Positions 7,764 through 60,323 are shown, counted from the stretch's first letter. The stretch is 64,000 nt of DNA from Candidatus Beckwithbacteria bacterium GW2011_GWC1_49_16 (GCA_001029675.1 CP011210.1:192193-256192); one strand, 5' to 3'. Made by a program: numbers and translations. The notes: a model not told the origin generated them from the letters alone.

Positions 7764-10310
7764 ATGAGTTTTGACCATAATAAAATCGAAGCCAAGTGGC
7801 GGAAGAAATGGCGGGAGTCTGGGCTATATAAGGTAGACCTTAAAGGCGCCAAAAAGCCCTTTTATAACTTAATGATGTTTCCATATCCTAGCGCCGAAGG
7901 GCTTCATGTGGGTAACATGTACGCTTTCACCGGGGCGGATTTTTACGGCCGGTTCCAGGCGATGCGGGGGCAAGAGGTGTTTGAGCCGATTGGGCTTGAC
8001 GGTTTTGGGATTCACAGCGAAAACTACGCCATCAAGATCGGCGCCCACCCGTCGCAGCAAGCCAAGGTGAGTCAGAAGCGCTTTTACGACCAACTATCCC
8101 GCATCGGTAACCGCTTTTCCTGGGAACAGCGTTTGGAGACTTACGATCCCGAGTACTACAAATGGACCCAGTGGCTGTTTATCAAGATGTTTGAGAAAGG
8201 GTTGGCGGTCAGGAAAAAATCGATGGTCAACTGGTGCCCGAGCTGTAAAACGGTTCTGGCCGACGAGCAGGTCGAGGGCGGGGTGTGTGAGCGGTGTAAG
8301 ACGCCGACGGTGAGAAAAGAGACCTATCAGTGGTTTTTCAAGATTACCGACTATGCCGACAGACTGCTTGGTAACATCGACAAGATCGACTGGCCGCAAA
8401 AGATTAAGACCGCCCAAAGGAATTGGATTGGTCGCAAAGAAGGCATTAACATCACTTACGAAATTAAAGGCAGCAAAAAAACAGTCACTTGTTTTACAAC
8501 CACGCCGGTGAATTTTGGCGCCACTTTTATTGTTATTGCTCCTGAACATGTGTTAGTAAAAGAAAGTAAGAACAAAAAAATCCAAGAATATGTCACTAAG
8601 GCACTGAAAAAAACTGAACAGCAGCGACAAATGGAAGGAAAAGAGAAAACCGGCGTTTTCACCGGGCTTTATGCTGTTAATCATGTCACCAAAAAAGAAA
8701 TTCCCATTTGGGTGGCAGATTTTGTCTTAAAAGACGTTGGCACTGGGGCGGTTCAGGGTTGCCCGGGGCATGATTTACGCGACTTTGAGTTTGCCAAGAA
8801 GTTTGGATTGCCGATTACACGGGTTGTGGTTGGTCCTGATGGGGACAGAAACGAAATTACCAGAAAGGAGCAAGTGATTCAGTCGGGAACGTCAGGAAAA
8901 ATGGTAAATTCAGACTTTTTGAACGGTATGGAGTTTAGTAAAGCAATGCAAAAAACCATGGATTACTTTGAAGAAAGGGGTTGGGGCGAAAGAGTGATTA
9001 GTTTTCACCTGCGCGATTGGCTCATATCCCGCCAACGCTACTGGGGGCCGCCGATACCGATGATTTTTTGTGATAAGTGCGAATGGCAGCCGGTGCCCGA
9101 GAAAGATTTGCCGGTGGAGTTGCCGTTCGTCAAAGACTATCAGCCTTTGGGCGAGGGTAAGGCGCCTTTGGAGAAAGCCCCGAAAGAGTGGCTTGAGGTC
9201 AAGTGCCCGAATTGCGGCGGGAAAGCCAGAAGAGAGACAGACGTCTCGGATACTTTTCTAGACTCAAGTTGGTATTTTTTACGTTATCCTTCGATTAAAT
9301 CCAATAAGGACAGTCTTCCCGGTACCGGAAAGACTGTCCTTAGGGAAAAACTGCCGTGGGATCAAGAGGTCACACGGCGCTGGCTGCCGGTCAACGCCTA
9401 CATTGGCGGCGCCGAGCACGCGGTGTTGCATCTTCTGTACTCGCGCTTTGTCTGGATGTGTTTAAGAGATTGGGGGTATTTGCCCAAAAGCCTGGGTGAC
9501 GAGCCGTTTCCGTTTTTGTATTCCCACGGCCTGTTAATCAAAGACGGTGCCAAGATGAGTAAAAGCCGCGGCAACGTGGTTATTCCTGACGAGTACATGG
9601 AAAAATTCGGCACCGACGCTTTGCGGATGTACTTGATGTTTATCGGCCCCTACGACCAGGGAGGGGATTTCCAAGATACGGGGATGATGGGGATGAGGAA
9701 GTTTTTGGATCGGGTGTGGCGGTTGGTGATTGCCATCCAGGACACTCCCGGAGTGAAAAATTCTGCCACTCCGGGAGTGTCTGAGGTGGGTCGCTTCCGG
9801 CATCAGACGGTAAAAAGAGTTACCCAGGCCATGGAAAACTTGCGCTACAACGTCGGTATCGCCGCTTTGATGGAGTATGTTAACTTCTTGGAATTTCACC
9901 TTAGATTACTCACTCCCGGAGTGAAAAATTCCTCCACTCCGGGAGTGGTTGTGGAAGCCGTCGAAACTTTAGTATTGCTGCTGGCGCCAATGGCACCGTT
10001 TATCAGCGAAGAGATGTGGCAGATGCTGCGCAAATCCGAAGCACGAAGCACGAAATTCGAATCCGTCCACCAGCAAGCTTGGCCGACTTTTGACGAAGAG
10101 AAAGCGCGCGCCGATAAAGTTGAAGTGGTGGTCCAGGTTAATGGCAAACTGCGCGCCCGGTTGAGCCTTGGTCGAGACGAAGCCCAAGACAAAGAGCAGG
10201 TGTTTAAGGCAGCCAAGTCAGAGGCGGCGGTCAAAAGATACCTTGAGAACAAAAAGCCGGTCAAGGAGATTTTTGTCAAGGGCAAGCTGGTTAACCTGGT
10301 GGTTAGATAA
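7764..10310 (+). CDS. leuS: leucyl-tRNA synthetase
   Basis: 848 aa with a class I HIGH-type motif (HVGN) and KMSKS (GAKMSKSRGN). Carries two in-frame palindromic inserts (TPGVKNSATPGV, TPGVKNSSTPGV) and a heptamer-repeat insert (SEARSTKFES). Confidence 0.95.
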   Translation: MSFDHNKIEAKWRKKWRESGLYKVDLKGAKKPFYNLMMFPYPSAEGLHVGNMYAFTGADFYGRFQAMRGQEVFEPIGLDGFGIHSENYAIKIGAHPSQQAKVSQKRFYDQLSRIGNRFSWEQRLETYDPEYYKWTQWLFIKMFEKGLAVRKKSMVNWCPSCKTVLADEQVEGGVCERCKTPTVRKETYQWFFKITDYADRLLGNIDKIDWPQKIKTAQRNWIGRKEGINITYEIKGSKKTVTCFTTTPVNFGATFIVIAPEHVLVKESKNKKIQEYVTKALKKTEQQRQMEGKEKTGVFTGLYAVNHVTKKEIPIWVADFVLKDVGTGAVQGCPGHDLRDFEFAKKFGLPITRVVVGPDGDRNEITRKEQVIQSGTSGKMVNSDFLNGMEFSKAMQKTMDYFEERGWGERVISFHLRDWLISRQRYWGPPIPMIFCDKCEWQPVPEKDLPVELPFVKDYQPLGEGKAPLEKAPKEWLEVKCPNCGGKARRETDVSDTFLDSSWYFLRYPSIKSNKDSLPGTGKTVLREKLPWDQEVTRRWLPVNAYIGGAEHAVLHLLYSRFVWMCLRDWGYLPKSLGDEPFPFLYSHGLLIKDGAKMSKSRGNVVIPDEYMEKFGTDALRMYLMFIGPYDQGGDFQDTGMMGMRKFLDRVWRLVIAIQDTPGVKNSATPGVSEVGRFRHQTVKRVTQAMENLRYNVGIAALMEYVNFLEFHLRLLTPGVKNSSTPGVVVEAVETLVLLLAPMAPFISEEMWQMLRKSEARSTKFESVHQQAWPTFDEEKARADKVEVVVQVNGKLRARLSLGRDEAQDKEQVFKAAKSEAAVKRYLENKKPVKEIFVKGKLVNLVVR
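9743..9779. repeat. palindromic element CACTCCCGGAGTG-aaaaattctgc-CACTCCGGGAGTG, in-frame in leuS
   Basis: Exact inverted 13-mers separated by 11 nt. Translated as TPGVKNSATPGV. Confidence 0.9.
9911..9947. repeat. palindromic element CACTCCCGGAGTG-aaaaattcctc-CACTCCGGGAGTG, in-frame in leuS
   Basis: Second copy 168 bp downstream of the first. Translated as TPGVKNSSTPGV. Confidence 0.9.
10033..10066. repeat. heptamer-type simple repeat insert (CGAAGCA x2.5) in leuS
   Basis: aaatccgaagcacgaagcacgaaattcgaatccg encodes SEARSTKFES. Related to the inserts in argS and truB. Confidence 0.7.
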
Positions 10311-11915: not shown

Positions 11916-11965
11916 ATGGCAATAAAAAGCTGCCGCCGGCAGCCAAGTTAATTTATAGACGCAAC

Positions 11966-12613: not shown

Positions 12614-12638
12614 TAAGCTTCGGCTAAGCCTCTAGCCG

Positions 12639-14713: not shown

Positions 14714-14741
14714 TAACAGGGAGAATATTTAGTCAACGAGT

Positions 14742-15515: not shown

Positions 15516-15530
15516 GTTTGAGGGTAGAAT

Positions 15531-17288
15531 ATGGTGATGAATCTTGAAGGGAAGATAAAAACAGCGATTGATAAAGTCTTGAAAGATTTTGGCGTTCCCG
15601 GAGGTGAATTTAAAGTGGAGCACCCCGAAAACGAGGCGCATGGGGATTATTCGGCCAACGTGGCTCTAGTTGCTGGAGGTGGGCGAGACTTAGCCGAGAA
15701 GATCACGGAGAAATTGAGAGCGGATAAAGGGTTGGAGGAAATTGCTTCGAAAATTAAGGTCGCAGGAGCCGGTTTTATTAATATATCAATCAAAACTGAC
15801 CATCTTATCACTCAAGCTGTTGAACTGCTAAAAGAAGGCTATATGGGGGGTAAAAGCACACGCCGCCAAGGCTTTGTGGGGCAAAGGATCATGGTCGAGT
15901 TTACTGACCCCAACCCTTTCAAGGAGTTTCATATCGGGCATCTTTACTCCAACATTGTCGGTGAGTCTTTGTGCCGGCTGCTTGAGGTGGAGGGAGCAGA
16001 GGTAAAGCGAGTTAATTATCAGGGCGATGTCGGTTTACATGTCGCCAAAGCCATTTGGGGCATGAAGCAGATGATCCAAAAAGATATAGATTTAAATAGT
16101 TTGAGTAAGAAATCTTTGCCTGAAAGGCAAAAGTTTATGGGTCAGGCTTACGCCATGGGGGCGACTGCCTACGAGGAAGACAAAAAGGCTAAAGAGGAGA
16201 TAGAGGTTTTAAATAAAAAGATTTACGAGCTTGATGATGACGTCAGGCAGTTATACGAGAAAGGTAGAGGTTGGAGCTTGGAGTATTTTGAGACGATTTA
16301 TAAGCGCTTGGGAACTAAGTTTGACGACTATTTTTTTGAAAGAGAAGTGGGTCAGGTGGGTTTAAAATTGGTTAAGGAGTTTTTGAAAAAAGGTGTCTTT
16401 GAAGAAAGCCAGGGGGCGGTGGTGTTTCCCGGAGAAAAGTATGGCCTTCATACCCGGGTGTTTGTCAATAAGCTAGGCCTGCCGACTTATGAAGCTAAGG
16501 ATTTGGGTCTGGCGCCGACCAAATACGGACGCTACCAATACGACCAATCGATTATCGTCACCGCCAACGAGATCGATGAGTACTTCAAGGTGGTAATTGC
16601 CGCTTTGAAAAAGATAAATCCTAAGCTGGGGAAGAAAACCCGCCACGTGTCGCACGGGATGGTCAAGCTGCCGGAGGGAAAGATGAGCTCGAGAACCGGC
16701 AAGATCGTCACCGGCGAGTGGCTGCTTGATGAAGCCCGCGCCAGAGCTTTGAAAATTATGGCGGAGGCAGAGATTAGTGAAGAGGAGAAAGAAATAATCG
16801 CCGAGCAGGTGGGCCAAGCGGCGGTCAAGTACGCGTTACTCAAAACCGGCATTGGCCAGGACGTGGTGTTTAACTTTGGCACCTCGGTATCGTTTGAGGG
16901 CAACTCCGGGCCGTATCTTCAATATACTTACGCCAGAGCGCAGAGCGTCTTGGCAAAATCCGAAACTCGAAGCACGAAGCACGAAAAAATTTCGGATTTC
17001 GGATTTCGGATTTCGGATTTAGCACCAGAGGAACTCGCAGTGCTGCGCTGGCTTTACCGCTACGGGGAAGTGGTGGATGAGGCGGCGGCGGAGTTGTCAC
17101 CCAACCTGGTAGCCAACTTCCTTTTCGAGCTAGCCCAGCGTTTCAACAGTTTTTACAATAAAATGCCGATTTTGAAAGCCAAAGACGAAAAGATTAAGAG
17201 TTTGCGTTTGCTACTGACGGCGGCGACGGCAGAGGTGGTTAAACGAGGTTTGTATCTTTTGGGGATTCAGTCCCCGGAGAAGATGTAG
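15531..17288 (+). CDS. argS: arginyl-tRNA synthetase
   Basis: HIGH motif (FHIGHLYS), Arg-tRNA synthetase core and DALR anticodon-binding C-terminus. Contains heptamer-repeat insert encoding ETRSTKHEKISDFGFRISD. Confidence 0.95.
   Translation: MVMNLEGKIKTAIDKVLKDFGVPGGEFKVEHPENEAHGDYSANVALVAGGGRDLAEKITEKLRADKGLEEIASKIKVAGAGFINISIKTDHLITQAVELLKEGYMGGKSTRRQGFVGQRIMVEFTDPNPFKEFHIGHLYSNIVGESLCRLLEVEGAEVKRVNYQGDVGLHVAKAIWGMKQMIQKDIDLNSLSKKSLPERQKFMGQAYAMGATAYEEDKKAKEEIEVLNKKIYELDDDVRQLYEKGRGWSLEYFETIYKRLGTKFDDYFFEREVGQVGLKLVKEFLKKGVFEESQGAVVFPGEKYGLHTRVFVNKLGLPTYEAKDLGLAPTKYGRYQYDQSIIVTANEIDEYFKVVIAALKKINPKLGKKTRHVSHGMVKLPEGKMSSRTGKIVTGEWLLDEARARALKIMAEAEISEEEKEIIAEQVGQAAVKYALLKTGIGQDVVFNFGTSVSFEGNSGPYLQYTYARAQSVLAKSETRSTKHEKISDFGFRISDLAPEELAVLRWLYRYGEVVDEAAAELSPNLVANFLFELAQRFNSFYNKMPILKAKDEKIKSLRLLLTAATAEVVKRGLYLLGIQSPEKM
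16965..17020. repeat. composite simple repeat in argS: CGAAGCA x2 followed by (TTCGGAT)x4, flanked by inverted AAATCCGAAA / TTTCGGATTT
   Basis: The tandem 7-mers and the inverted 10-mers can both be read directly from the sequence. The repeat is in-frame in argS. Confidence 0.8.
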
Positions 17289-17293
17289 TGCCC

Positions 17294-18736: not shown

Positions 18737-18760
18737 AAACCTCTATTATACTATAGGGCT

Positions 18761-20113
18761 TTAAATCAGGGAAGAGAGCAGGAATAAAAACAGCAGCCCC
18801 GGTTGAAGCGTCAGGGGGTAGTGATCGAAAAGGCCGAGGAAGAGAAGTAAGCCGTAAAGCGTAATCGGTAAGCTGTAATTTTTAGATTTTATCGCCCGGT
18901 AGAAAGGAGAAAAGATCAAGTAAAGGAAGCCGGCCAGTCCCAAAATTCCGGTTTCGGCCAGGATCAATAGATAGACGTTGTGGACCGGTTGTAAAAAGCG
19001 GGTGGTGGCGGGAATTAAGCCGTAGCGGTCCATGATGACGGTGAAGTTGTTCAGTCCGACCCCGGTGAGCGGGGATTCTTTAACCATGGACAGGGCCATT
19101 TGGGTTAACTGCGACCGGCGGCTGAAGGAAGATTGGGGGGCCAAAAAGCTCAAGTTTTGGGCAAAGACCAAAAACAGCAGTAAAACTCCGGCGTAGAAAG
19201 CGACTAGCTTGACAGCAACTGATTTCACTCCCGGAGTGAAAAATTCCTCCACTCCGGGAGTGGGATTACTAAGCCGGTCCTGCCAGAAAGAAAAGCGGGG
19301 CAGGTCTTTGATCAGGGCCAACTGTTTGGCGCGGAGCTTTTGTTTGAGCGAGTCGGTTTGAAGCAAAGTTGCTGCCGGCAGGCCGATTAACAAAAACCCC
19401 AGCCAGGCGGAGAGGGAAAAGGTGAGGAATAAGCTGGCTACGCCAGCGGTAATCAGTAATCCGTAATAGGTAGTGCGTAAAAAGTTGACCTTCAAGGATA
19501 AACCCTGAAGGTGCTGGCGGATAACTAGCGGCAGGGTGACGGCCAAAAAGCCGCCTAGAACGTTAGGATGGGGAGTGGTGCCCAAAGGCGGGACTTTGAG
19601 CGAGCCGTCAAACCAGGTGATTTTGTCGATACCCGGTGTCGCGTCGGTGTAGGGTTGTTCGCCCAGAAACCAAAAGCCAAAGATTGAAGACTGGTTTAAC
19701 CATTGAGTCAGAGCCAGAAGCGATTGGAATAAAACCGCCAGGCTTAAGGTTTTGGCAATTGAGGGAAGGTGGATTTTAAGGTCAATGTGGCGGCGGATCC
19801 AGAGGCTAAAAAGAGATAGCTCAAAAAATTTAAGCCATTTGTAGGCGGCCGGCACGAACGAGGCGGAAAAAATTACTGAAGGTAAAAGTAAAGCTAAAAA
19901 AACGGCCGTGGGGCCACGACCTTTTGGTCGGGACGAAGAACTAAACCACAGGCCAAGAAGTAAGAATATGAGAAAGTCGGTAAGATAGACGGTGGGGACA
20001 AGATAGTCGACCAGGGTGCCGGAGACGTATGATGAGGGCAGAATAAAGTGACGGGCAAGATTAGTGGGCAGAAGAAAGAGGATTAAATAGAAAAGCCGGT
20101 ATTGCCAGACCAT
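18761..20113 (-). CDS. polytopic membrane protein, possibly O-antigen ligase/polymerase-like
   Basis: More than 10 predicted TM helices. Contains in-frame palindromic element (TPGVEEFFTPGV) and two GTAANNN heptamer repeats (ITLYGLL, TTYYGLLIT). Confidence 0.35.
   Translation of the reverse strand: MVWQYRLFYLILFLLPTNLARHFILPSSYVSGTLVDYLVPTVYLTDFLIFLLLGLWFSSSSRPKGRGPTAVFLALLLPSVIFSASFVPAAYKWLKFFELSLFSLWIRRHIDLKIHLPSIAKTLSLAVLFQSLLALTQWLNQSSIFGFWFLGEQPYTDATPGIDKITWFDGSLKVPPLGTTPHPNVLGGFLAVTLPLVIRQHLQGLSLKVNFLRTTYYGLLITAGVASLFLTFSLSAWLGFLLIGLPAATLLQTDSLKQKLRAKQLALIKDLPRFSFWQDRLSNPTPGVEEFFTPGVKSVAVKLVAFYAGVLLLFLVFAQNLSFLAPQSSFSRRSQLTQMALSMVKESPLTGVGLNNFTVIMDRYGLIPATTRFLQPVHNVYLLILAETGILGLAGFLYLIFSPFYRAIKSKNYSLPITLYGLLLFLGLFDHYPLTLQPGLLFLFLLSSLI
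18844..18871. repeat. (GTAANNN)x4 heptamer repeat
   Basis: gtaaagc gtaatcg gtaagct gtaattt. Encodes ITLYGLL in a TM helix. Confidence 0.6.
19226..19262. repeat. palindromic element CACTCCCGGAGTG-aaaaattcctc-CACTCCGGGAGTG, in-frame in membrane protein gene
   Basis: Identical to the second leuS copy. Read on the minus strand as TPGVEEFFTPGV. Confidence 0.9.
19448..19482. repeat. (NGTAATN)x5 heptamer repeat
   Basis: ggtaatc agtaatc cgtaata ggtagtg cgtaaaa. Confidence 0.55.
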
Positions 20114-20153
20114 TAAAAATTACTATAGCATAATCTGTGTTATACTCGAGCTT

Positions 20154-22279: not shown

Positions 22280-22296
22280 TGGTGTATATTTAATCT

Positions 22297-22767
22297 ATGG
22301 CCAAAGAGCAGTCGGTAGTTTTAGTTAAACCGGACGGGTTACAGCGGGGGTTGTTGGGCGAGATGGTCAGCCGGTTTGAGAGGAAGGGGTTGAAGTTGGT
22401 GGCAGTCAAGATGATGAGACTAACGGATGAGATTTTGGATCATTGGTACGAGCATCACAAGGACAAGGATTTTTTTGACGAGCTTAAATCTTTCATGAAG
22501 TCGGCGCCGATTGTGGCCATGCTGTGGCAGGGGGTGGAGGCGGTGGCGGTGGTGAGAAAGCTTTGCGGCACTACTTCGGGCCGTGAGGCCGAGGCCGGTT
22601 CGATCAGAGGCGATTTTTCCATCAGCCAACAATTGAATCTGATCCACGCGTCAGACAGCGTCGATAATGCCGACAGGGAAAGAAAACTTATTTTCAAAGA
22701 CGGCGAGATAATCGATTGGGAAAGCGCGGCCGAGGCTTTGGTTTATTCGGCGGCAGAGAGAAGTTAA
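22297..22767 (+). CDS. ndk: nucleoside diphosphate kinase
   Basis: SVVLVKPDG...RGDFSIS...NLIHASD matches the NDK catalytic His motif. Confidence 0.95.
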   Translation: MAKEQSVVLVKPDGLQRGLLGEMVSRFERKGLKLVAVKMMRLTDEILDHWYEHHKDKDFFDELKSFMKSAPIVAMLWQGVEAVAVVRKLCGTTSGREAEAGSIRGDFSISQQLNLIHASDSVDNADRERKLIFKDGEIIDWESAAEALVYSAAERS

Positions 22768-26379: not shown

Positions 26380-27525
26380 TTAATACTTGAAATTTAAGCT
26401 CGGTTGGCGGTCGAGCTTTTTAGGGTTTTTGACAAAGTCTTTTTTGAGGAATTTGAAGTAAGCAGCTACGGCGATCATGGCGGCGTTGTCGGTGAAGAGT
26501 TTTTTGGAAAAAGGCAGGTAGACGGGTAGGTTATGGCCGCGGGCGACGCGGCGCAGCTGGCGGCGGATGTAGAGATTAGAAATAACGCCGCCGCCCAAAA
26601 GGATGCCTTTAGGCTGGGTTTTTTTAATGGCAAGCTCGAGCTTGCCGGTCAAACTGTCGGCGACGGCTTTTTGGAAAGAGGCGGCCAGGTTGTGGGTGAA
26701 ATTTAAGCTAAGGGTCTGACCTTTTTTATTTTGGATGATATACAGAGCAGCGGTTTTAAGGCCGGAGAAAGAAAAGTTTAAGTCTTTGGAGTGCTGCATG
26801 GGTACGGGCAGGGGGATTTTGGCTATAGCCAGCGGCGAAGCTTTACGGGCCAGTTCCTCAATGATCGGGCCGCCGGGGTAGCCCAATTTAAGCATTTTGG
26901 CCAGTTTATCCAAGGCCTCGCCGGCAGCGTCGTCCAGAGTTTCGCCCAAAAGTTGATAACGGCCGATGGCGTGGACAAGAACAAGTTGGGTGTGGCCGCC
27001 GGAAACGAGGAGAGCTAGCAAGGGGAATTTGATAGACACACCCGGTGTGGGGGATTTCTTCACACCGGGTGTGTTGGGTAAGGCCAGGGGTGAAAGCAGA
27101 TGTCCTTCCATGTGGTTGACGGCGATTAGAGGCAGATGGAGGTAGGCGGCGAGCTTGCGGGCAGTAGCGATGCCGACTTCCAGGGCCGGGGCCAGGCCTG
27201 GGCCAACGGTGACGGCGATGGCGTCGAGAGAATCCGTCAAGGTCGGACCTTTCGCCTGCCGGCGAGCCCTGCTTGGCTGGCTGCCAGGCATTCCTTTTAA
27301 GGTCCGACCTTGCCTGCGCGCTCGCATCAGCGCCTCCCGCACCACATAGTCGATTTTTTCTTGGTGGGCGCGCTTGGCCAGATGGGGGACGACCCCGCCG
27401 TACTTTTTGTGGATGTTAATTTGGGAGGCGATGACGTTGGAGAGGATTTTGCGGCCGCGGCTGACGGCGGCGGCGGTTTCGTCGCAGGAAGTGTCGATGG
27501 CTAGAATTAAAGGCTGTTTCATCAA
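26380..27525 (-). CDS. tsaD: tRNA N6-adenosine threonylcarbamoyltransferase TsaD (Kae1/YgjD family)
   Basis: LILAIDTSCDETAAAV...GGVVPHLAKRAH N-terminal signature and GGGVISN C-terminal motif. Carries in-frame palindromic insert TPGVKKSPTPGV. Confidence 0.9.
   Translation of the reverse strand: MMKQPLILAIDTSCDETAAAVSRGRKILSNVIASQINIHKKYGGVVPHLAKRAHQEKIDYVVREALMRARRQGRTLKGMPGSQPSRARRQAKGPTLTDSLDAIAVTVGPGLAPALEVGIATARKLAAYLHLPLIAVNHMEGHLLSPLALPNTPGVKKSPTPGVSIKFPLLALLVSGGHTQLVLVHAIGRYQLLGETLDDAAGEALDKLAKMLKLGYPGGPIIEELARKASPLAIAKIPLPVPMQHSKDLNFSFSGLKTAALYIIQNKKGQTLSLNFTHNLAASFQKAVADSLTGKLELAIKKTQPKGILLGGGVISNLYIRRQLRRVARGHNLPVYLPFSKKLFTDNAAMIAVAAYFKFLKKDFVKNPKKLDRQPSLNFKY
27037..27073. repeat. 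palindromic element variant CACACCCGGTGTG-ggggatttctt-CACACCGGGTGTG, in-frame in tsaD
   Basis: Exact inverted 13-mers. Minus-strand reading gives TPGVKKSPTPGV. Confidence 0.9.
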
Positions 27526-34785: not shown

Positions 34786-37338
34786 TTAACTAAAGATCGT
34801 ATCGGTGCTTCTAATCACAGACACGGTCATGCCGTTACTGGTAATTGTTGAGTCCTGTTCAAAGGGGATCATTCTCGGGGCAGCAGTAGAGTGCCGGGCG
34901 CGGACCCGGGTGAAAACAGTGGTGTCATAAACAACTTGGACTGTTTCCGAGTCTTCCGATCCGATCGAGCCGGTAGTTTCGTGAACATCGATAAATGGCA
35001 CATAAAGCGTGTCATTGGTGGCTTCCGGGGCAATCGGCAGGGTGTTAATTTCATAGCCGTCAGTGTTGGTAAAGCCGGTTACGGTGGTCATGTTAACGTT
35101 GTCATCGTCAACTACTTCGGTGATATAACCGACTGCGCCGTTGGCAGTGCGCCGGATTAAGTCACCCACTTTAGCGGTGGCAAAAGCACCGGTATCTTGG
35201 ATATGGGTGGTGGTATTGCCGGTGGCGTCTGATGTCAAACCGGTGGTTGAGTCTAAAGTGAAAACACTGCCGCTCCAGGAGGCAAAGCGGATTCGGTATT
35301 CGGTATTGGCACTATCATCCACAATTCTCAATACTCCGCCGACGGTTTTGCCTGGTTCGTCAATCCTGATTGTTTGGTTGACAGTTAAACTGGTGCCGCC
35401 GGCAGCCTCGCCGCCGACACAGGTGTAGTAGTTTTTTTCAATATCACCGCCAGAGCCGGTCAATCTAAAGACGGCGATTCTGTCGCCTTCAATCGTTTTA
35501 TTAACAGTAACGTTTACCTTAATTGGGGCCAGTCTCACTGTACCGCCGTCATCAACCAGCTGAAAATTATTTAAGTCAGAATCCAGACGATCGTTAAGGT
35601 AAACTCCTGGGGCACAGAAGAACTTGCCGCCGGCGAAGGTGCCGAAAGGAGCGGCGCTGATTGGGGTAATGGTAGCGATTGTTGCCCCGGTTGGGTTTAT
35701 AGTTACACCGCCGCCGGTAATGCTACCGCCGCCGGCAGTAAAAGTTCCCCGGGAATCTCTTAAAATCAGGATATCATCTGTAGAGTTATGGTTAGTACAG
35801 GTGCCAGTTGCGCCGGTGCCGGCTTGGGTGACTACTGTTCCGGTAGTGATAGTGCCGTCGTCGCTGGTATAGCCGGAGATTTTGTAATCAGAGCCGATAT
35901 AAGATTCGCCGATAACCGTGGCTGCACCCGGGTCAATGTCGTCGGCATTTAGGTTGCGCCTGGTAATGTATTTTGTCCACTGGTAGACTTTGCCGACTGA
36001 ATTTTGATTACAGTCAATGACGATCGAGTAGTTTTCATTTGTCCCGTTTTCGTCAACGTCAAAACTGCCTCCGTCGGCCATTCCGCCGAAAGCAAGCGTT
36101 GCGGGAGTGCCGCTTTCCCAAAATGTCGTCCCTGAAGTTGTTGCCGGTCCGGCAACAACCGGAGCCGAAGCGGTGATCGTGCCGCTGCCGTCGCCATCTG
36201 ATTGAGTCGAGAAAACATATTCTTGAATGACGGTATCGCTAGCAGAAAAATCAGTGATCGGTTCACCGAGTAGGTAATAGTAAATATAGTTGTTGTCGGT
36301 ATCAATGGCGGTAATCACTCCGCGCTTGGTAGTTGTAGCCCAAGTATTGGCGCCGGAGTTGGTCCAATATATATAGTTACCAACATCAAAGTTTGCCACA
36401 GAGGCAGTCATTGTCATTCGGCTGTAGCCGGTTGGATTGTCCAGGTCAGTACCGGTTTGAAGCGGGATAGGGTTACGACCCACCACCCCGGCAGTAGTGA
36501 TCAAGTCCACAGTATAGTAGGAATAGGTTTTGGAGTATTGCCGGGCATAGACTTTGATCCAGCCTTCGTCGGTTTCCGCACCCAACTCCTGGACGTTGAT
36601 CAAAATGTCGATATGGTCGGTGGACAAACCTGTAGTTTTGTCGCTCCACCAGTCGCTTTGGGTGTCTTTGTAGGCGGTTAAATAGGCACCGTCTTGATAG
36701 ACGTAAATATGAGTGTAGTTTTCAATCGCACCGATGGAATAGATATTGGCCCAGAGCGATTCGCCGGCGGAAACGGCCGCGGCCGATTGGGTAGCGGTGT
36801 GGGTGTTACAGGTAATACCGCCTGAGGTTGAGTTCCAGTCGTTAGCGAGAGCATTGTTAGCTGGCCTGATCCACAAGGTGCTGCCGGCGCCGGTGCCTTT
36901 TACATCCAAGAGCGTCCCGGAGTCGAGGTCGGTGTCGTGGCTGATGGTCTCACCGATGTCGCCAGCAACGATATTGGTATTGTTGCAGGTGACTTTGACG
37001 ATACCGACATTGCCGGTGCCGTCACCCGGCAGGTCTCTTTGCCATTCAGCCGTTTTTAAAGCACCGCCATAGAGGTGTTCGACCGTGGTTCGGTCAATAA
37101 ACCAGGGGTCTTTATCGCCTGTGTCAATAATGCCGATGGTGTACTCGGTCGGGGTCTGGGCGGACATGGGCACGCCGTCGTCCATCTGGGTGAGTTCGTC
37201 AAAGAGGTCCTGGAGAGCCGAGTAGAGTTCATTGATCGTTCTGGTGCCGGTGTCCGATCCGGTCCAAACAATCCGCTTCTGCCGATTTTCGGCGCCGTAG
37301 TAAACTGTGAAGTCACCGCTTAAAATAGTGTCTGACAT
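34786..37338 (-). CDS. giant fibre/tail-fibre-like protein (850 aa, Thr/Gly-rich beta-rich, no signal peptide)
   Basis: N-terminal module ...TINELYSALQDLFDELTQMDDGVPMSAQTP... is shared with the 82-aa ORF at 38548..38796. Long low-complexity T/G/S/N-rich body. Confidence 0.5.
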   Translation of the reverse strand: MSDTILSGDFTVYYGAENRQKRIVWTGSDTGTRTINELYSALQDLFDELTQMDDGVPMSAQTPTEYTIGIIDTGDKDPWFIDRTTVEHLYGGALKTAEWQRDLPGDGTGNVGIVKVTCNNTNIVAGDIGETISHDTDLDSGTLLDVKGTGAGSTLWIRPANNALANDWNSTSGGITCNTHTATQSAAAVSAGESLWANIYSIGAIENYTHIYVYQDGAYLTAYKDTQSDWWSDKTTGLSTDHIDILINVQELGAETDEGWIKVYARQYSKTYSYYTVDLITTAGVVGRNPIPLQTGTDLDNPTGYSRMTMTASVANFDVGNYIYWTNSGANTWATTTKRGVITAIDTDNNYIYYYLLGEPITDFSASDTVIQEYVFSTQSDGDGSGTITASAPVVAGPATTSGTTFWESGTPATLAFGGMADGGSFDVDENGTNENYSIVIDCNQNSVGKVYQWTKYITRRNLNADDIDPGAATVIGESYIGSDYKISGYTSDDGTITTGTVVTQAGTGATGTCTNHNSTDDILILRDSRGTFTAGGGSITGGGVTINPTGATIATITPISAAPFGTFAGGKFFCAPGVYLNDRLDSDLNNFQLVDDGGTVRLAPIKVNVTVNKTIEGDRIAVFRLTGSGGDIEKNYYTCVGGEAAGGTSLTVNQTIRIDEPGKTVGGVLRIVDDSANTEYRIRFASWSGSVFTLDSTTGLTSDATGNTTTHIQDTGAFATAKVGDLIRRTANGAVGYITEVVDDDNVNMTTVTGFTNTDGYEINTLPIAPEATNDTLYVPFIDVHETTGSIGSEDSETVQVVYDTTVFTRVRARHSTAAPRMIPFEQDSTITSNGMTVSVIRSTDTIFS

Positions 37339-45732: not shown

Positions 45733-46775
45733 GGCGGGGTTTTGAGGTTGACCAAGACAACGCGGGCGCGTGATTTTTGAGCCAGAGTTAGCAGCGGTTT
45801 TAGGGTGCGGCCGGCCCACTCGACGGCGGCGACGGTTTTGGTTTTGAGGCGATCTTCAAGATGAAGCTGATAAAACTCCTCGATGTGACTAAGCCGCCAA
45901 GTGTCAAGGTGTAAAAACTTGCCGAAAACTTTATAGCGGCGGAAGGGGTATTCTCTTTCGATGGTGTAGGTGGGCGAAACGATGGTTTGAGGGATTTTAA
46001 GAAACCGGCCGATGCCTTTGGCAAACTGGGTTTTGCCCGAGCCAAGGTCACCAATGAGCAAAAACAGCAAGGGTTTTTTCTGTAAATCGTTCCAGTGTGC
46101 CAGCATCAGTTTTTGGGCCAAGTCGCTTGTTTCTTGAGGAGAGTGGGTGGTAACACTTTCCGCACTCCCGGAGTGGGGGAATTTTTCACTCCGGGAGTGA
46201 AGGAGTTTAATTTTGCCTTCGCGCAGAATCAGCGGATCATCCAGAGTGGTATCGACCACGGTGGAGGCCGGGCGGCGGGGGAGTTTACCAACATCAATAA
46301 TAAAATCAATCAAACTTTGCTGTTTTCGGCTGGTGTGTTTCAAAAGTTGGGAGATGGAATAAGGCTTGGGTTTGTAGGAGACATTGGCAGAAGTGGCGGT
46401 GATGGGGCGTCCCAGCCTGCCAGCGAGCGCCAGCGCTACCGGGTGATCAGGAATGCGGATCCCCAGAGTGCCGGTTTCTGACTCCACTCCCGGGGCGACT
46501 TTGCCCCGGCCCCACGACACCACAGTCAACGGTCCGGGTAAAAACTTTCTGTATAAGTTTTTAGCAGAGGTATTTAGTTTGACATATTTTGATGCCATGG
46601 TTTGGTCAGCGACGGCCACTGATAAAGGTTTGCCTTCGCGGCGGGATTTGTAGGCAAGTAATTTGGCGACCGCCTTTTTGCTGGTGGCGTCGACGCCGGC
46701 ACCGTAACACGTTTCGGTGGGGTAGATCACCAGGCCGTGGGCTTTTAAGACTTTGACGGCTTGGGTGATTTCCAT
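45678..46775 (-). CDS. fused L-threonylcarbamoyladenylate synthase TsaC (YrdC domain) and TsaE (YjeE P-loop) protein
   Basis: N-terminus VIYPTETCYGAGVDA...GIRIPDHPVALALAGRLGRPITATSAN is the YrdC domain. C-terminus LLFLLIGDLGSGKTQFAKGI...SPTYTI...HLDTWRL is TsaE. The palindromic insert (HSRSEKFPHSGSAE) sits in the inter-domain linker. Confidence 0.8.
   Translation of the reverse strand: MEITQAVKVLKAHGLVIYPTETCYGAGVDATSKKAVAKLLAYKSRREGKPLSVAVADQTMASKYVKLNTSAKNLYRKFLPGPLTVVSWGRGKVAPGVESETGTLGIRIPDHPVALALAGRLGRPITATSANVSYKPKPYSISQLLKHTSRKQQSLIDFIIDVGKLPRRPASTVVDTTLDDPLILREGKIKLLHSRSEKFPHSGSAESVTTHSPQETSDLAQKLMLAHWNDLQKKPLLFLLIGDLGSGKTQFAKGIGRFLKIPQTIVSPTYTIEREYPFRRYKVFGKFLHLDTWRLSHIEEFYQLHLEDRLKTKTVAAVEWAGRTLKPLLTLAQKSRARVVLVNLKTPPHQKAARDITISTPKTNR
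46163..46199. repeat. palindromic element CACTCCCGGAGTG-ggggaattttt-CACTCCGGGAGTG, in-frame at the TsaC/TsaE junction
   Basis: Exact inverted 13-mers separated by an 11-nt spacer. Confidence 0.9.
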
Positions 46776-50796: not shown

Positions 50797-51020
50797 AGGT
50801 TTACCTCTTGAAATGTCTAACTTTGTACAATGGTTGGACTGTTTTCACGATCCAGTATGGACTATATTAAAAAGGCTGTCAAGGTGGGGAAAATGAGATA
50901 AAATTGCTATAAATAGTTATATATTGTTATACTTATTGAGGCTTTAGAGAGAGTTAAATGATGTTTTTTGATATGTTTTGATAGTGACTAGTTTTTGCCA
51001 GTTGAGATTAAATTGGTGGC

Positions 51021-52073
51021 GTGCTAAATTTATTCACCATGGCGATGATTCAAAAAGTAGGCATAGATTTAGGCACGGCCAACTCGGTGGTGTATTTGGC
51101 GGGCAGCGGCATAGTGCTGGCCGAACCGACGGTGGTAGCGGTGACGGTGGAAGACAACCGGGTGGTGGCGGTGGGTAACGAAGCCAAAGAAATGCTGGGG
51201 AGGACTCCGGAAAACATTGTCGCTTCAAAGCCGATGCGCGACGGGGTGATTGCCGATTACGTGGTCACCGAAGCGATGTTGCGGTATTTTTTGCAGAAAG
51301 TGGCCGGGCGAAACTTGATTTTTAAACCGGACGTGATGATTTGCGTTCCCGCCGGTTGTACTCAAGTAGAGAGAAGAGCGGTTGAAGACGCCACCTACGC
51401 TGCCGGAGCCAGAGAAGTGTATATCATTCACGAGCCGTTTGCGGCGGCTTTGGGAGCCGGGGTGCCGGTGGGCGAGGCCTCGGGCAACATGATTGTCGAC
51501 ATGGGCGGCGGTTCGTCTGAAGCGGCAGTGATCTCTTTAGGCGGGGTGGTAGTGGCCAAGGGTATCCGGGTGGCCGGCAATAGCCTGGACGACGCCATCG
51601 CCGGTTTTGTCAGGAAAAAACACGGCCTGGTGGTGGGCGAGAGGATGGCCGAGGAGATAAAGATCAACTTGGGCCGAGCGTCGAGCGAAGTTGAAACCAC
51701 GAACCACGAACCACGAACCACGAACCAGAAAATGCGGGTCAAAGGCAGGGACAGCATCCAAGGCTTACCCAAATCAGTCGAGGTGACGGCAGAAGAGATT
51801 GAAGAGGCGATTAAACCTAAATTATCCCAGATCGTCGGCATGGTTAAGTCGGTTTTAGAGGAGATTCCGCCGGAGCTATCCAGCGACATTATTGATAAGG
51901 GGATTGTGATGAGCGGCGGGACGAGCCTGCTAACTAACCTGGACAAGTTACTGACTGCCGAGACCGGCGTTCCCTGCCACATTGCCGAAGAGCCGATGCT
52001 TTGCGTCGCCCGCGGCACGGGGATTGCTTTGGATAACCTGGAGCTTTACAAGCGGGCGATTAGTAAGAGGTAG
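51021..52073 (+). CDS. mreB: rod-shape-determining protein MreB
   Basis: IGIDLGTANSVVY, actin-fold phosphate motifs and GGGSSEAAV. The start may be the internal Met at ~51039. Contains (CACGAAC)x4 insert encoding ETTNHEPRTTNQ. Confidence 0.9.
   Translation: MLNLFTMAMIQKVGIDLGTANSVVYLAGSGIVLAEPTVVAVTVEDNRVVAVGNEAKEMLGRTPENIVASKPMRDGVIADYVVTEAMLRYFLQKVAGRNLIFKPDVMICVPAGCTQVERRAVEDATYAAGAREVYIIHEPFAAALGAGVPVGEASGNMIVDMGGGSSEAAVISLGGVVVAKGIRVAGNSLDDAIAGFVRKKHGLVVGERMAEEIKINLGRASSEVETTNHEPRTTNQKMRVKGRDSIQGLPKSVEVTAEEIEEAIKPKLSQIVGMVKSVLEEIPPELSSDIIDKGIVMSGGTSLLTNLDKLLTAETGVPCHIAEEPMLCVARGTGIALDNLELYKRAISKR
51698..51725. repeat. (CACGAAC)x4 perfect heptamer tandem repeat inside mreB
   Basis: The four perfect 7-mers can be read directly from the sequence. 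Confidence 0.85.
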
Positions 52074-52074
52074 C

Positions 52075-52845: not shown

Positions 52846-52922
52846 AGGTAAATTTTACCACGACCATCGATTTACTTTCCCCCTTGACAATTTTCACGCG
52901 GGTGTGCGACACTTAAATATTG

Positions 52923-53456
52923 ATGTTTGCCAGAATGAAATACAAATGGCTTAAAAACAAGAAAAAGATTTTAGGGTTTGGTGGGCTTTCGGTGGCAGTA
53001 GTCGGCTTGGCAGTAGGGGTATCTTTAGTCCAAAGAAGTCAAAGACTCGAAAGTCAAGCTAGAAGTGAACAGGTAAATCCGTGCGGGTACGGACTGGATT
53101 GTACCGACAAACCCATTACAGGAGCAACGAGTTGTGTTGATCAATATGGAGGAAATTCTTACTGTTGTCCGGAAAACTCTATTAGGTGGTACGGAGCCTG
53201 TGTGGAGAAATGTGGGTCGGGCTTAAGCTGTTGGGATTATCCTGTCCAGGGTGCTTCTCGCTGTATTGTTATTACTAACAAGATAACTGAGACTTACTGT
53301 TGTCCAAAGGATAAGCCATGGAACCTAAATGGCGTTTGCAACCCGGCGCCTAGACGTTTTCGTCCTAACCCAGTCAATAAACCGACATCTTCTCCAGAAG
53401 GAGAGTCGGGAGTTCCTGGATTGCCGGAAGTGTCGGGCCAACCCATTCCTCTATAG
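52923..53456 (+). CDS. small secreted Cys-rich protein, paralog A
   Basis: Signal peptide MFARMKYKWLKNKKKILGFGGLSVAVVGLAV. 12 Cys in the mature part (CCPEN...CCPKD). Confidence 0.5.
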   Translation: MFARMKYKWLKNKKKILGFGGLSVAVVGLAVGVSLVQRSQRLESQARSEQVNPCGYGLDCTDKPITGATSCVDQYGGNSYCCPENSIRWYGACVEKCGSGLSCWDYPVQGASRCIVITNKITETYCCPKDKPWNLNGVCNPAPRRFRPNPVNKPTSSPEGESGVPGLPEVSGQPIPL

Positions 53457-53531
53457 AGTTAGTTTTTTACACACGGTTGATTACTTTCCCCCTTGACAAT
53501 TTTCACGCGGGTGTGCGACACTTAAATATTG

Positions 53532-54023
53532 ATGTTTGCCAGAATGAAGTTTAAGTGGTTAAAAAACAAGAAAAAGATTTTAGGGTTTGGCGGGCTTTCG
53601 GTAGCGGTGGTGGGACTGGCAGTAGCTTTAACAGCGCTTCAAACAGGGGGTTTGGATATCCGCTCTCTGGCTTCTCCACCAAAAACCAATGAGTTCTGTG
53701 AAGTGATAAGAAAAAACGACCCGAATTGTGAAAGAGTCCCCAGCAAATTAAAAAATTGCTGTCAGTCAACACCTTCGCCATCACCGACACCGACACCATC
53801 ACCGACACCTTTAGTATCCCCAACACCTGGAGACGGGAGTTTACCAGCTTGTCCAGCCGGAACAGATGCTGATAGATGTATCGATGTTGACCAGCCGAAT
53901 GATATTGTTGGAGGGGTTTGTTTGTCTGAAATTGATAGTGGAGAAACAACTTATACGGCCTGTTGCGCTGAAGGGAAGAAGCCGGTTTATGATTTTGACA
54001 GTGCTAAGTACATCTGCCAGTAG
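53532..54023 (+). CDS. small secreted Cys-rich protein, paralog B
   Basis: 5' region and signal peptide near-identical to paralog A, then a divergent Cys-rich mature domain with a (SPTP)n linker. Confidence 0.5.
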   Translation: MFARMKFKWLKNKKKILGFGGLSVAVVGLAVALTALQTGGLDIRSLASPPKTNEFCEVIRKNDPNCERVPSKLKNCCQSTPSPSPTPTPSPTPLVSPTPGDGSLPACPAGTDADRCIDVDQPNDIVGGVCLSEIDSGETTYTACCAEGKKPVYDFDSAKYICQ

Positions 54024-54067
54024 TTAGAAAAGATTAGTGGTTTCTGCGGGCGGGGAGGGGAAGTGAG

Positions 54068-55147: not shown

Positions 55148-55190
55148 AATGAGACGATGAACGCAAGCGAAGTTGTGTTAAGATTTACTC

Positions 55191-58355: not shown

Positions 58356-58576
58356 CTTTTCTCCTGTATCCCCAGAAGCCATAAGACGGCTTCTTTTTTG
58401 TAGCGGCGGTCGCCCCGGGAGTTTATCCTGATGGCCGGCAATTTGCCGCGCTTGCCCCAACGTTTGATGGTTAAGGGGGAAACGCGCAGCAGATCGGCGA
58501 CTTCACGGACGGTGAGTAAATCCGGCAGGTTATCAAGAGATACAGATTTACCTTTTGATACACTTTGATCGACCAT
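58352..58576 (-). CDS. excisionase/MerR-type HTH DNA-binding protein
   Basis: LLTVREVADLLRVSPLTIKRWGKRGKLPAIRI. Confidence 0.45.
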   Translation of the reverse strand: MVDQSVSKGKSVSLDNLPDLLTVREVADLLRVSPLTIKRWGKRGKLPAIRINSRGDRRYKKEAVLWLLGIQEKS

Positions 58577-58650
58577 GGCTTGTTCACAAGGCAGCTAATT
58601 ACTACTTCAAGTAGAGTTAATATATCAAAGTGTGATAGAGAATGTCAAGA

Positions 58651-59067
58651 CTACTTGAGCTCAACCTGGGCGCCGGCGGCTTCAAGCTTTTTCTTGGCTT
58701 CTTCGGCCTGCTCTTTTTTGAAAGTGCCGACTTCTTTGGGAGCGGCTTCGGCCAGGTCCTTGGCTTCTTTGAGGCCCAGTTCCTGGTTGACTTCGCGTAG
58801 AGCCTTGATCACGCCGATTTTGTTGGCGCCGGCTGATGCCAGCACCACCTGATACTCTGATTTTTCTTCGGCGGCGGGTGCGCCAGCCGATTCGCCGGCG
58901 GCGGGAGCCGCAGCAGCGACAGCCATCGTCGGAGCCGCGGAAACGCCGAACTTATTCTCTAAAGCCTTAACCAGTTCATTTAGTTCCAAAACCGATAGCT
59001 TCTCGATCGTGTCGATGATTTTCTGCAACGAGGCGGAAACTTTAATTTCTTTCTTGGTATCTGCCAT
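58651..59067 (-). CDS. rplL: 50S ribosomal protein L7/L12
   Basis: N-terminal dimerisation helix, Ala/Glu-rich hinge, C-terminal [14 protein letters not shown]...LKEAKDL...VELK. Confidence 0.95.
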
Positions 59068-59582
59068 TAAGATTTCACCGCCTTTAAAACGTAAACTAAA
59101 TTTCTAAAATTTGCTGACAAGACGTTGACGATGCCGGTTAAGGGGGATTTGATGGTGGCCACGGTTTTGCCAATGAGTTCCACCTTGGAGGGGAGTGTGG
59201 CCAATTCTTCAACTTGGACTTTAGCTAAAGGTTCTTTGACTAAAAAACCCAGCTTGATCGTGGGTAGTTCGTTTTCTTTAACAAACTGGGCCAGGGTTTT
59301 GATTGGGGCGATGGGGTCAGAGTAAGCAAAGAGGGTCATGGTCGGGCCTTCCAGCGTTTGGGCAAAATCCTCTGGCAGAGAGTACTTTTCTGCCTCAAGA
59401 GCTAGTTTAAGAAGCGAGTTTTTAGCCACAACCAGCTCGCCTTCTACCTCAAGGATTTGGCGGCGGAGTTTGCTTTGTTGGGCGACGGTCAGGCCGCGGT
59501 AGTCGGCCAGCACCACGGATTTGGCCCGGGAGAGTTTGTCTTGGAGTGTTTTAACCTGGTCTAAGTTTTTTTGAGAAGGCAT
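59067..59582 (-). CDS. rplJ: 50S ribosomal protein L10
   Basis: Position immediately upstream of rplL, 171 aa, L10-like sequence. Confidence 0.9.
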
Positions 59583-59657
59583 AATTTCCTCGGTAGGGTT
59601 TATCCGCCGGCTGGCTGACCTACTGTCTTAGGACAAAAGGCATTATATAATCAGACC

Positions 59658-60323
59658 ATGGATTTTGTAAAGGGTCAAGTTAATTTAGATGAGGATATTT
59701 TGGTGGTGGATAAGCCGGTGGGTTGGACCAGCCATGACGTGGTGGCTAAAATAAGAGGGGAGCTTGGTAAGCACGAAACTCGAAGCACGAAACTCGAAAC
59801 TAAAATCGGTCACGGGGGGACGCTGGATCCGTTTGCCACCGGGGTGCTTTTAATCTTGGTGGGGAAAGCCACCAGAAGGTTTGAAGAGATAAAAACTTGG
59901 GATAAGGAGTATGTGATGACGGTTAAATTAGGGGCGGCCACGACCACGGGCGATCCTGAAGGAGAGGTAACGGAAACCAGGCCGGTAACAGGGGTAAAAA
60001 GGGAAAGGGTAGAGAGGGCTTTGAGAGATTTGACGGGGTTTTACCAGCAACAAGTGCCGGCTTACTCGGCGGTAAAAGTAGGCGGGGAGAGGCTTTACGC
60101 CCTTGCCCGGGAGGGAAAAGAGGTCAAGTTGCCCCGGCGTCAGGTAGAGATCAAAGAGATTGAGCTAGTTGACCTTCAAGGTTTATCCTTGAAGGTAAGG
60201 GTGGTTTGCGGCAGCGGCACCTATATGAGGCAGTTGGCGGTGGATATAGGAGAAAAGCTTGATCTTCCCGCTCATGCGGCGGCTCTGCGCCGCACCCGGG
60301 TAGGTGACTATGAGTTATCTTGA
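59658..60323 (+). CDS. truB: tRNA pseudouridine(55) synthase TruB
   Basis: VVDKPVGWTSHDVV...GHGGTLDPFATGVLLILVGKATR catalytic Asp motif. Contains a 14-nt x2 repeat insert encoding HETRSTKLETK. Confidence 0.9.
   Translation: MDFVKGQVNLDEDILVVDKPVGWTSHDVVAKIRGELGKHETRSTKLETKIGHGGTLDPFATGVLLILVGKATRRFEEIKTWDKEYVMTVKLGAATTTGDPEGEVTETRPVTGVKRERVERALRDLTGFYQQQVPAYSAVKVGGERLYALAREGKEVKLPRRQVEIKEIELVDLQGLSLKVRVVCGSGTYMRQLAVDIGEKLDLPAHAAALRRTRVGDYELS
59771..59798. repeat. (GCACGAAACTCGAA)x2 tandem repeat inside truB
   Basis: Shares CGAAGCACGAAA with the leuS and argS inserts. Confidence 0.8.

Follow-up and report, generated by a model that had tools for sequence, protein, structure and literature searches.

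Why do leuS, argS and truB, three genes for tRNA-binding enzymes, carry in-frame tandem repeats of 7 nucleotides (nt) that encode a shared peptide, E[TA]RSTK, and why does mreB hold a similar array? This question is raised by a stretch of 64,000 nt (hereafter the window) from Candidatus Beckwithbacteria bacterium GW2011_GWC1_49_16, which belongs to a Candidate Phyla Radiation (CPR)/Microgenomates population of Rifle groundwater and has a genome of 1.05 Mb; the window proteins match exactly those of this organism and its relatives. Here, we propose that these segments are not protein motifs but probably pieces of repeat DNA, selfish or neutral, on which selection has acted as a filter. This reading is based on the codons in which the peptide is written, the similarity of three of the arrays to the arms of a foldback repeat widespread across phyla, their lineage-specific presence, their location in protein loops (in signal peptides for other arrays of the window) and the existence of alleles lacking whole repeat units.

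The four repeat sequences quoted in a preliminary description of the window were found at the positions given for them in leuS, argS, truB and mreB, for which Tandem Repeats Finder lists four arrays, and translation of the segments reproduces the quoted peptides; the array of mreB, whose unit CGAACCA is CGAAGCA with one base changed, encodes a different peptide and not E[TA]RSTK, which had been attributed to it as well. An exact-period scan of the window detects nine near-perfect arrays of period 7, none of period 8 and two of period 9, against a mean of 0.05 in shuffled sequence; the initial set of four, though correct, had missed five further arrays, all in open reading frames (ORFs) of the minus strand. 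All nine are located within ORFs, are translated without a stop and contain, according to both kinds of scan, 2.4-4.7 copies arranged head-to-tail. The 11-mer CGAAGCACGAA, allowing at most one mismatch, occurs eight times (1.24 expected), a count reached by none of 100 shuffles. Lengths of 28, 35 and 56 nt, at which the inserts had been said to stay in frame, are not divisible by three; the real additions in comparison with homologues are 6 residues in LeuRS, 8 in MreB and 9 in TruB, and the ArgRS module amounts to 22 codons.

The shared peptide follows from the arithmetic of the unit. Since 7 and 3 have no common factor, and three units make 21 nt, (CGAAGCA)n gives the same cyclic heptapeptide, RSTKHEA, in all three forward frames and CFVLRAS on the reverse strand, with stops in none of the six frames. 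In every copy R-S-T is written CGA-AGC-ACG, with codons that account for 8% of Arg (CGA), 22% of Ser (AGC) and 14% of Thr (ACG) in the window genes; the constant use of these rare synonymous codons indicates that selection on the peptide is not the cause, and agrees with the earlier view of the arrays as simple-sequence modules and not codon-level duplications. Judging from the codons, E[TA]RSTK is a by-product of repeat DNA and not a protein motif. A peptide selected as such, for example as an RNA-binding patch of enzymes that handle tRNA, would be compatible with its Lys/Arg-rich composition and with its occurrence in LeuRS, ArgRS and TruB, which is real; however, the link with tRNA binding is removed by the presence of the module, in frame, in another nine proteins from other phyla; the eight that could be identified by eye (Table 1) include TopA, UvrA, GatA, NadE, a DNA ligase and an MBOAT protein, and copies in other genomes are mostly intergenic. 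With the identical rare codons, the absence of the TruB insert from all relatives compared and the location in disordered loops of low predicted confidence (see below) also against it, the tRNA-binding interpretation was rejected, and a motif at the protein level is almost certainly not what these segments represent.

A genome-wide search for the motif had been recommended, and in fact it recurs far beyond this genome. The 18-mer CGAAGCACGAAGCACGAA is present at at least 118 loci of a species-representative genome collection, where about 17 are estimated to occur by chance, and its hosts include Aminicenantes, Planctomycetota, Desulfobacterota, Omnitrophota, several CPR groups and one metagenome-assembled genome (MAG) of Nanoarchaeia, a DPANN archaeon. 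Two contexts can be distinguished. In the first, pure (CGAAGCA)n arrays stand beside arrays of other heptamers, a pattern of the STRR type. In the second, about 70 conserved, A-rich nucleotides, (T)AAATyCGAAGCACGAAGCACGAAATyCGAAACAAATTCAAATGACCAAAATTCAAAATTCAAAAC, are followed by a variable loop and then by a T-rich imperfect complement ending in ...GTTTCGGATTTCGATATTCGAATTTCGGATTT(A). The arms themselves are strings of 7-nt units, namely AAATyCG-AAGCACG-AAGCACG-AAATyCG-AAACAAA... on the A-rich side and ...TTTCGGA-TTTCGAT-ATTCGAA-TTTCGGATTT on the T-rich side; at about 50 loci the two arms are paired at a distance of 100-490 nt, and some genomes contain several foldback copies per 8 kb. Near-identical arms of ~70 nt are shared by Aminicenantes, Phycisphaerales, Saccharibacteria and Berkelbacteria, the 5' flank AAAT[TC] is common to 62 of 127 arrays, and one Aminicenantes element (L004) is predicted to form a single long hairpin, with a z-score of about -7, as DNA or RNA. 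A search of eight foldback loci against Rfam (E ≤ 1) returned only chance hairpins resembling plant miRNAs and a tRNA, the literature searched by sequence string contained no relevant paper on the unit family or its foldback, and our literature search on heptamer repeats in CPR found none; the 100-490 nt foldback repeat has apparently not been described before. As analogies for its arms, CsrA-type GGA sites, heptad operators of ribbon-helix-helix proteins and attC sites were considered and set aside; the layout of the arms does not fit attC.

By sequence comparison, the arrays in leuS, argS and truB appear to be copies or fragments of the arms of this foldback. An arm profile constructed only from T-rich arms of non-CPR loci, which do not contain the 18-mer used in the search, matches the T-rich and the A-rich arm in argS (E 8e-8 and 2e-5, respectively), the leuS module on the minus strand (right-arm profile, E 1e-3) and the truB array (E 7.5e-3), and has no match in the mreB and TTACGG-type arrays. 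Furthermore, the 30-mer of leuS, AAATCCGAAGCACGAAGCACGAAATTCGAA, is identical to the starts of elements in Planctomycetota (L025 and L057) and Aminicenantes (L064).

These matches have to be set against a purely local origin, in which chance duplications of 7 nt grew by slippage, and the likeness among arrays came from mutational bias combined with a filter for stop-free, tolerable units. Among the long simple repeats of many bacteria it is heptamers that are over-represented (PMC4679880, PMC4692102), metagenomes abound in (CCACGAA)n and variants of it that differ by one base, with at least 120 loci for (CCACGAA)3, the same loops of relatives hold different units, slippage by whole units is observed and the profile does not match all of the arrays; for those of mreB and the TTACGG type, a general 7-nt slippage bias is enough. 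As an account of the whole set, however, a local origin is rather unlikely, in view of the leuS module being identical, non-periodic flanks included, in three genomes of other phyla, of the flank conserved beyond the array in about half of the cases and the near-identical arms of distant hosts, of profile E-values as low as those in argS, and of the third positions of the argS element, conserved in a gene which is saturated elsewhere. From the exact leuS 30-mer, the conserved flanks and the synonymous conservation in argS we infer that the modules came ready-made, through transposition, recombination or uptake of DNA, and did not grow where they now stand. They probably serve no function.

The copy in argS is a complete mini-hairpin of 65 nt (predicted sense-strand RNA hairpin of -31.2 kcal/mol with z -6.4), which encodes KSETRSTKHEKISDFGFRISDL in the variable loop preceding the DALR anticodon-binding domain. 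The hairpin-forming mini-element proposed earlier can thus be recognised in argS, and the proposal does not extend to leuS, truB and mreB, whose single arms do not fold (z > 0). In the ArgRS gene of Chisholmbacteria, whose protein is 51% identical, a foldback of 65 nt starts from exactly this codon position and shares the 7-nt register, and the element is missing from relatives closer than Chisholmbacteria. Between these two genes, nucleotide identity is 78.8% in the element versus 57.9% in the remaining gene, and third-position identity 81.8% versus 35%. It is possible that the element arrived, or was homogenised, well after the genes diverged; it is also possible that it is constrained at the nucleotide level, or that its site is targeted. 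The loop preceding the DALR domain is variable in length everywhere, Pyrococcus having one just as long, and for this reason the term insertion is appropriate here only relative to near relatives.

Comparison with orthologues, as had been recommended, indicates that the inserts are lineage-specific. The insert of TruB, which sits directly ahead of the catalytic GHGGTLDP strand, is missing from 119 of 119 relatives (45-67% identity), whose loops lack 4-9 residues in comparison, and from solved TruB structures, which have 9 residues fewer at this point; in an AlphaFold model based on an orthologue alignment (mean predicted local distance difference test score, pLDDT, 93), residues ~40-49 are coil with a pLDDT of 50-70. 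The inserts of LeuRS and MreB occupy hypervariable loops and are absent or replaced in relatives. In LeuRS, the loop with the module is 6 residues longer than in the E. coli enzyme, and at this site Peribacteria have a short loop and Chisholmbacteria a different insert; in MreB, where the addition is counted relative to solved structures, the length of the loop ranges from ~5 to 45 residues within Microgenomates, and residues 218-224 of the AlphaFold model fall below a pLDDT of 50 (mean 86). In both models the drop in confidence is confined to the inserts. Other heptamers are found at the same loops, such as (CAATTTT)3.4 in an ArgRS of 67% identity and (AAATCAC)4 in one MreB, and elsewhere in the gene the Chisholmbacteria ArgRS contains (GCAYGAA)n, (TTTCGGA)n and (AAATTCA)n or (AAAGTKA)n. 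A Chisholmbacteria locus of 22 kb (L120) has nine arrays of period 7 and 0-2 of other periods. Several relatives of MreB present at the same loop a recurrent low-complexity insert (VERVQEGSGFKAK...SRTDP), which may be another module.

Location and hydropathy go together. On the Kyte-Doolittle scale the peptides of the A-rich arms score -1.5 to -2.7, those of the three strongly T-rich arrays +1.3 to +1.7 and that of the imperfect array in ORF 437-1429 +0.26; the T-rich arrays encode hydrophobic peptides, three N-terminal signal peptides having them as their cores and a Wzy-type membrane protein containing one as well. Hydrophilic arms in loops and hydrophobic arrays in signal peptides and membrane proteins are the pattern expected from random arrival followed by purifying selection. 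In the mechanism that we propose, this Beckwithbacteria genome, like those of its Microgenomates relatives, would accumulate tandem arrays of 7-nt units, those of leuS, argS and truB deriving from arms of the widespread foldback. Units of the CGAAGCA type being stop-free on both strands, a gene could tolerate a copy whenever the total length is a multiple of three, and purifying selection would leave copies in permissive places only: A-rich arms, with their hydrophilic peptides, may persist in disordered surface loops of soluble enzymes, and T-rich units, with their hydrophobic ones, in signal peptides and membrane segments. Replication slippage then alters the arrays, 7 or 14 nt at a time. 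Within a gene, each such step causes a frameshift, and for this reason the arrays are better seen as a mutational liability than as an adaptation.

Slippage polymorphism, anticipated in the preliminary description, is visible in assemblies of the population. Several projects and assemblers contributed to the 63 assembly blocks in which the exact ArgRS protein is found, and six independent loci out of these blocks are 99.8-100% identical to positions 5531-27288 of the window, with no indel in an array. Three contigs, from different samples of a single European Nucleotide Archive (ENA) study, carry unit-length deletions in the arrays of mreB, leuS and ORF 3972-4694 (Table 1), all out of frame and otherwise with 0 mismatches over the 1.4-5.4 kb aligned. 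Since the junction sequences are absent from the full-length sequence, such deletions should need supporting reads in a de Bruijn assembly. The variants are infrequent (1 of ~58 contigs for mreB, 2 of ~45 for leuS), and full-length, in-frame proteins predominate in each 90% cluster, so that the situation thought to betray artefacts or pseudogenes, with most alleles out of frame, is not the one observed. Although three assemblies contain frameshifted versions, it is hardly conceivable that the arrays are assembly artefacts or mark pseudogenes, considering the number of blocks with the exact ArgRS, the six loci without array indels, the prevalence of intact proteins and NCBIfam scores far over the curated cut-offs (862 bits for leuS, 384 for argS, 459 for MreB and 195 for TruB). 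Two candidate variants were set aside. The indels of one locus (L124) have nothing to do with the repeats, being due to a run of Ns that marks a gap in the scaffold and to an error of 1 nt. Another (L130/P0364, DNDB01000005.1) is 99.8% identical to the window and diverges ~30 nt before the argS element, from window position ~16928 onward, and its last ~160 nt, at the contig end, hold a different repeat, GTCATTCTGACCCTGAGCTTGTCGAAGGAGAAGAATCTC, read as CHSDPELVEGEES; it was not taken as evidence for a strain whose argS loop carries another module, the contig end being probably chimeric.

The deletion alleles also bear on a regulatory role, in which slippage would turn genes off and on, or the argS hairpin would control translation or mRNA stability. 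A unit whose length is not a multiple of three, the existence of out-of-frame alleles of -7 and -14 nt and the position of three arrays in signal peptides of hypothetical secreted proteins are features that a switch would have, and an RNA element would account for the stable sense-strand fold in argS and for synonymous sites conserved across orders. However, two of the three variants break leuS and mreB, essential single-copy genes in which switching off cannot be adaptive, and variants are rare; the single-arm arrays are unstructured, and the Chisholmbacteria argS copy folds only weakly on the sense strand (z -2.6). Both forms of this explanation are considered very improbable.

Several observations weigh against selfish or neutral repeat DNA as the explanation and have to be considered together. 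The mreB and TTACGG-type arrays, which miss the foldback profile, may have arisen in place; relatives carry heptamer arrays of many units, much of which might follow from slippage being biased in general, no element being required; function, for instance as an RNA hairpin, might lie behind the strongly conserved synonymous sites of the argS copy instead of recent arrival; and the deletion alleles are known from assemblies of one study alone, without a check of the reads. In addition, no transposase family or other gene recurs beside 70 foldback loci, no target-site duplication is visible at the in-frame copies, and no pair of empty and filled sites was found for the full foldback. Owing to these three negative results mobility is undemonstrated: the idea of a mobile module, compatible with the data, stays unproven for want of a target-site duplication and a partner transposase. 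No arm pairs enclosing an ORF-sized segment, as in an autonomous copy, were found; in intergenic foldback copies the ends read TAAAT...ATTTA, and a TA duplication might be concealed there. Viral contigs provided only eight loci, all pure (CGAAGCA)n arrays without the foldback, and hence there is no sign of a phage vector. The stronger proposal that the CGAAGCA/CGAAATC foldback is an undescribed non-autonomous mobile element built of 7-nt units, which spread horizontally across bacterial phyla and into DPANN archaea and colonised, in frame, permissive loops of essential proteins in the gene-dense genomes of CPR, with slippage frameshifting essential genes now and again at a lasting cost that selection has to purge, is tentative and somewhat doubtful.

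Table 1. Positions of the heptanucleotide arrays and other dispersed repeats of the window, with in-frame modules, arrays and array variants in other genomes
Feature	Position	Strand	Sequence, product or remark
leuS module	10032-10061	+	AAATCCGAAGCACGAAGCACGAAATTCGAA; single A-rich arm; encodes KSEARSTKFE
leuS, Tandem Repeats Finder	10037-10054	+	CGAAGCA x2.6
argS mini-foldback	16956-17021	+	AAATCCGAAACTCGAAGCACGAAGCACGAAAAAA then (ATTTCGG) x4.6; two abutting arms, no loop
argS A-rich arm	16956-16989	+	AAATCCG AAACTCG AAGCACG AAGCACG AAAAAA
argS T-rich arm	16990-17021	+	(TTTCGGA)n; directly 3' of A-rich arm
argS, Tandem Repeats Finder	16968-16985, then 16989-17020	+	CGAAGCA x2.6, then ATTTCGG x4.6
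mreB array	51693-51731	+	(AACCACG) x4.7; encodes ETTNHEPRTTNQK
mreB, Tandem Repeats Finder	51695-51727	+	AACCACG x4.7
truB array	59769-59801	+	(AAGCACGAAACTCG) x2.1 + CGAAACT; encodes KHETRSTKLET
truB, Tandem Repeats Finder	59769-59798	+	14-nt unit x2.1
Array in ORF 437-1429	1364-1394	-	imperfect, ACTATCT-like; encodes LLLSTTYNLRS, N-terminal signal peptide
Array in ORF with end at 2906 (354 aa, probably starting MPTKRS...)	3861-3894	-	(GTTTACG)n; encodes ITVYGLLFTVYA, signal peptide
Array in ORF 3972-4694	4635-4668	-	(GATTACG/GTTTACG)n; encodes ILLITVYGLRFT, hydrophobic core of N-terminal signal peptide
Array in Wzy_C O-antigen-ligase-like membrane protein (18761-20113)	19447-19467	-	short, ATTACGG/ATTACTG; encodes YYGLLITA
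Array in hypothetical ORF 34786-37338	35289-35309	-	short, (ACCGAAT) x2.4; encodes NTEYRIR
In-frame module, LeuRS (Peribacteria)			site differs from window leuS; both arms
In-frame module, TopA (Kaiserbacteria)			two copies
In-frame module, UvrA; GatA; NadE; DNA ligase; cytochrome-c-assembly-like membrane protein; MBOAT protein of Gemmata			
Arrays in Chisholmbacteria locus L120	2623-2670, 5106-5136, 10582-10618, 15148-15179, 15657-15682		unit families including CCTCAAC, AAAGTKA, TAGGCAM; some in leuS/argS
Variant contig L128	mreB array		-7 nt; MreB split into 246 + 113 aa
Variant contig L129	leuS array		-7 nt; LeuRS cut at 797 aa
Variant contig L262	signal-peptide array of ORF 3972-4694		-14 nt; called gene without signal peptide
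Paired near-palindromes	9743-9786, 9911-9954 (both leuS), 3121-3164, 19226-19269, 27037-27080, 46163-46206		
Inverted pair	421-450, 3351-3380, 19483-19512, 60167-60196		

Short DNA with comparable behaviour is known in other lineages. Rickettsia palindromic elements (RPE), the subject of Ogata et al. 2000, are reportedly selfish DNA present in frame in essential genes. They measure 100-150 bp and are confined to one genus. [quoted passage not shown] As with RPE, dispersed copies are similar beyond the simple repeat, presence and absence alternate at orthologous sites and the host frame is maintained; inverted arms forming a hairpin characterise argS and the intergenic relatives, and not the single arms of leuS, truB and mreB. 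Unlike RPE, the modules are 30-66 nt long, built of heptamers, mostly single-arm and prone to slippage, they have kin in many phyla, including an archaeon, and neither a target-site duplication nor a parent transposase is seen; a relationship in sequence is not expected.

Heptanucleotide repeats as such are well known, the examples being the cyanobacterial STRR, the 'LSSR' class of Mrazek et al. 2007, TAACTGA in Beggiatoaceae and GGGAATC in Xanthomonas (PMC4679880, PMC4692102). A bias towards 7-nt slippage is reported in many prokaryotes (PMC4679880, citing Mrazek et al. 2007; PMC4692102). In common with STRR and LSSR heptamers, the arrays described here consist of tandem 7-nt units over-represented relative to other periods, have neighbours differing by one base in the unit, are occasionally inverted, are distributed patchily across phyla without a known vector and change copy number by slippage. 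They differ in that STRR and LSSR are mainly intergenic and too scarce in coding DNA (PMC4692102), whereas all nine arrays of the window are intragenic and in frame, four of them in housekeeping genes. A further difference lies in the unit family (CGAAGCA, CGAAATC, CGAACCA and relatives) and in its being part of a conserved 100-490 nt foldback, neither of which appeared in the literature that was searched. A third comparison concerns the phase-variable contingency loci of Haemophilus, Neisseria and Mycoplasma, in which simple repeats are located in ORFs (PMC11868660, PMC2651432). As in those loci, the unit is not divisible by three, slippage by one unit shifts the frame and three arrays are N-terminal in secreted proteins; in contrast, the hosts include essential housekeeping genes, the arrays, at 2.4-4.7 units, are short, alleles are rarely out of frame and no reversible switching is evident in the assemblies. 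On this analysis the best reading would be that the present case works like RPE combined with heptanucleotide simple repeats.

If this is true, the notion of selfish DNA inside protein-coding genes would extend from Rickettsia and a few other lineages to CPR, and the loops by which CPR housekeeping proteins differ from lineage to lineage would owe much of their variation to repeat DNA and not to adaptation. A module of ~70 nt that is near-identical in lineages as distant as Aminicenantes, Planctomycetota, CPR and Nanoarchaeia requires some vector, or some mechanism that generates it, which is the same problem posed by the TAACTGA and STRR heptamers. In practice, inserts of this kind create spurious shared motifs, inflate alignments and constitute frameshift hot spots in the annotation of MAGs.

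Other repeats are dispersed in the window. A second in-frame family consists of paired 13-nt near-palindromes, CACTCCCGGAGTG ... CACTCCGGGAGTG (variant CACACCCGGTGTG), ~10 nt apart, which encode TPGVKNS[AS]TPGV and are presumably the first class of micro-insertions distinguished by the earlier reader. Both of its leuS copies are missing from the LeuRS of Chisholmbacteria and Peribacteria, and in the mreB of a relative GCACCCCGGGGTGTC, akin to this family, comes after the heptamer array. A third repeat is the inverted pair ACCTTCAAGG-N5-CCTTGAAGGT, present in four copies, one of them inside truB.

Further observations concern the surroundings of the arrays. In Chisholmbacteria an IS200-like Y1 transposase gene (PF01797, E 4e-10) is located 4.4 kb downstream of argS, adjoining a TraG/VirD4-like gene (L119-L121 16349-17041; L121 9090-9782); no link of this gene to the repeats was shown. 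In the population, two of six near-identical loci (L122 and L126, 17229-18133) contain ~0.9 kb with a YafQ-like toxin and a ribbon-helix-helix (RHH) antitoxin, absent from the window (~22678-22758), which represents an insertion/deletion polymorphism at the strain level. GC skew is strongly positive across window positions 1-64000 (0.08-0.31 per 4 kb), regardless of gene orientation; an unusual strand composition disparity of a complete Microgenomates genome is reported in PMC7143001. A duplication of 68 nt (87% identity, 6370-6437 and 6922-6989) is found directly upstream of two consecutive ORFs, perhaps as a shared leader or promoter, and one of 145 nt (91% identity, 52872-53016 and 53481-53625) at the starts of two neighbouring paralogous ORFs.

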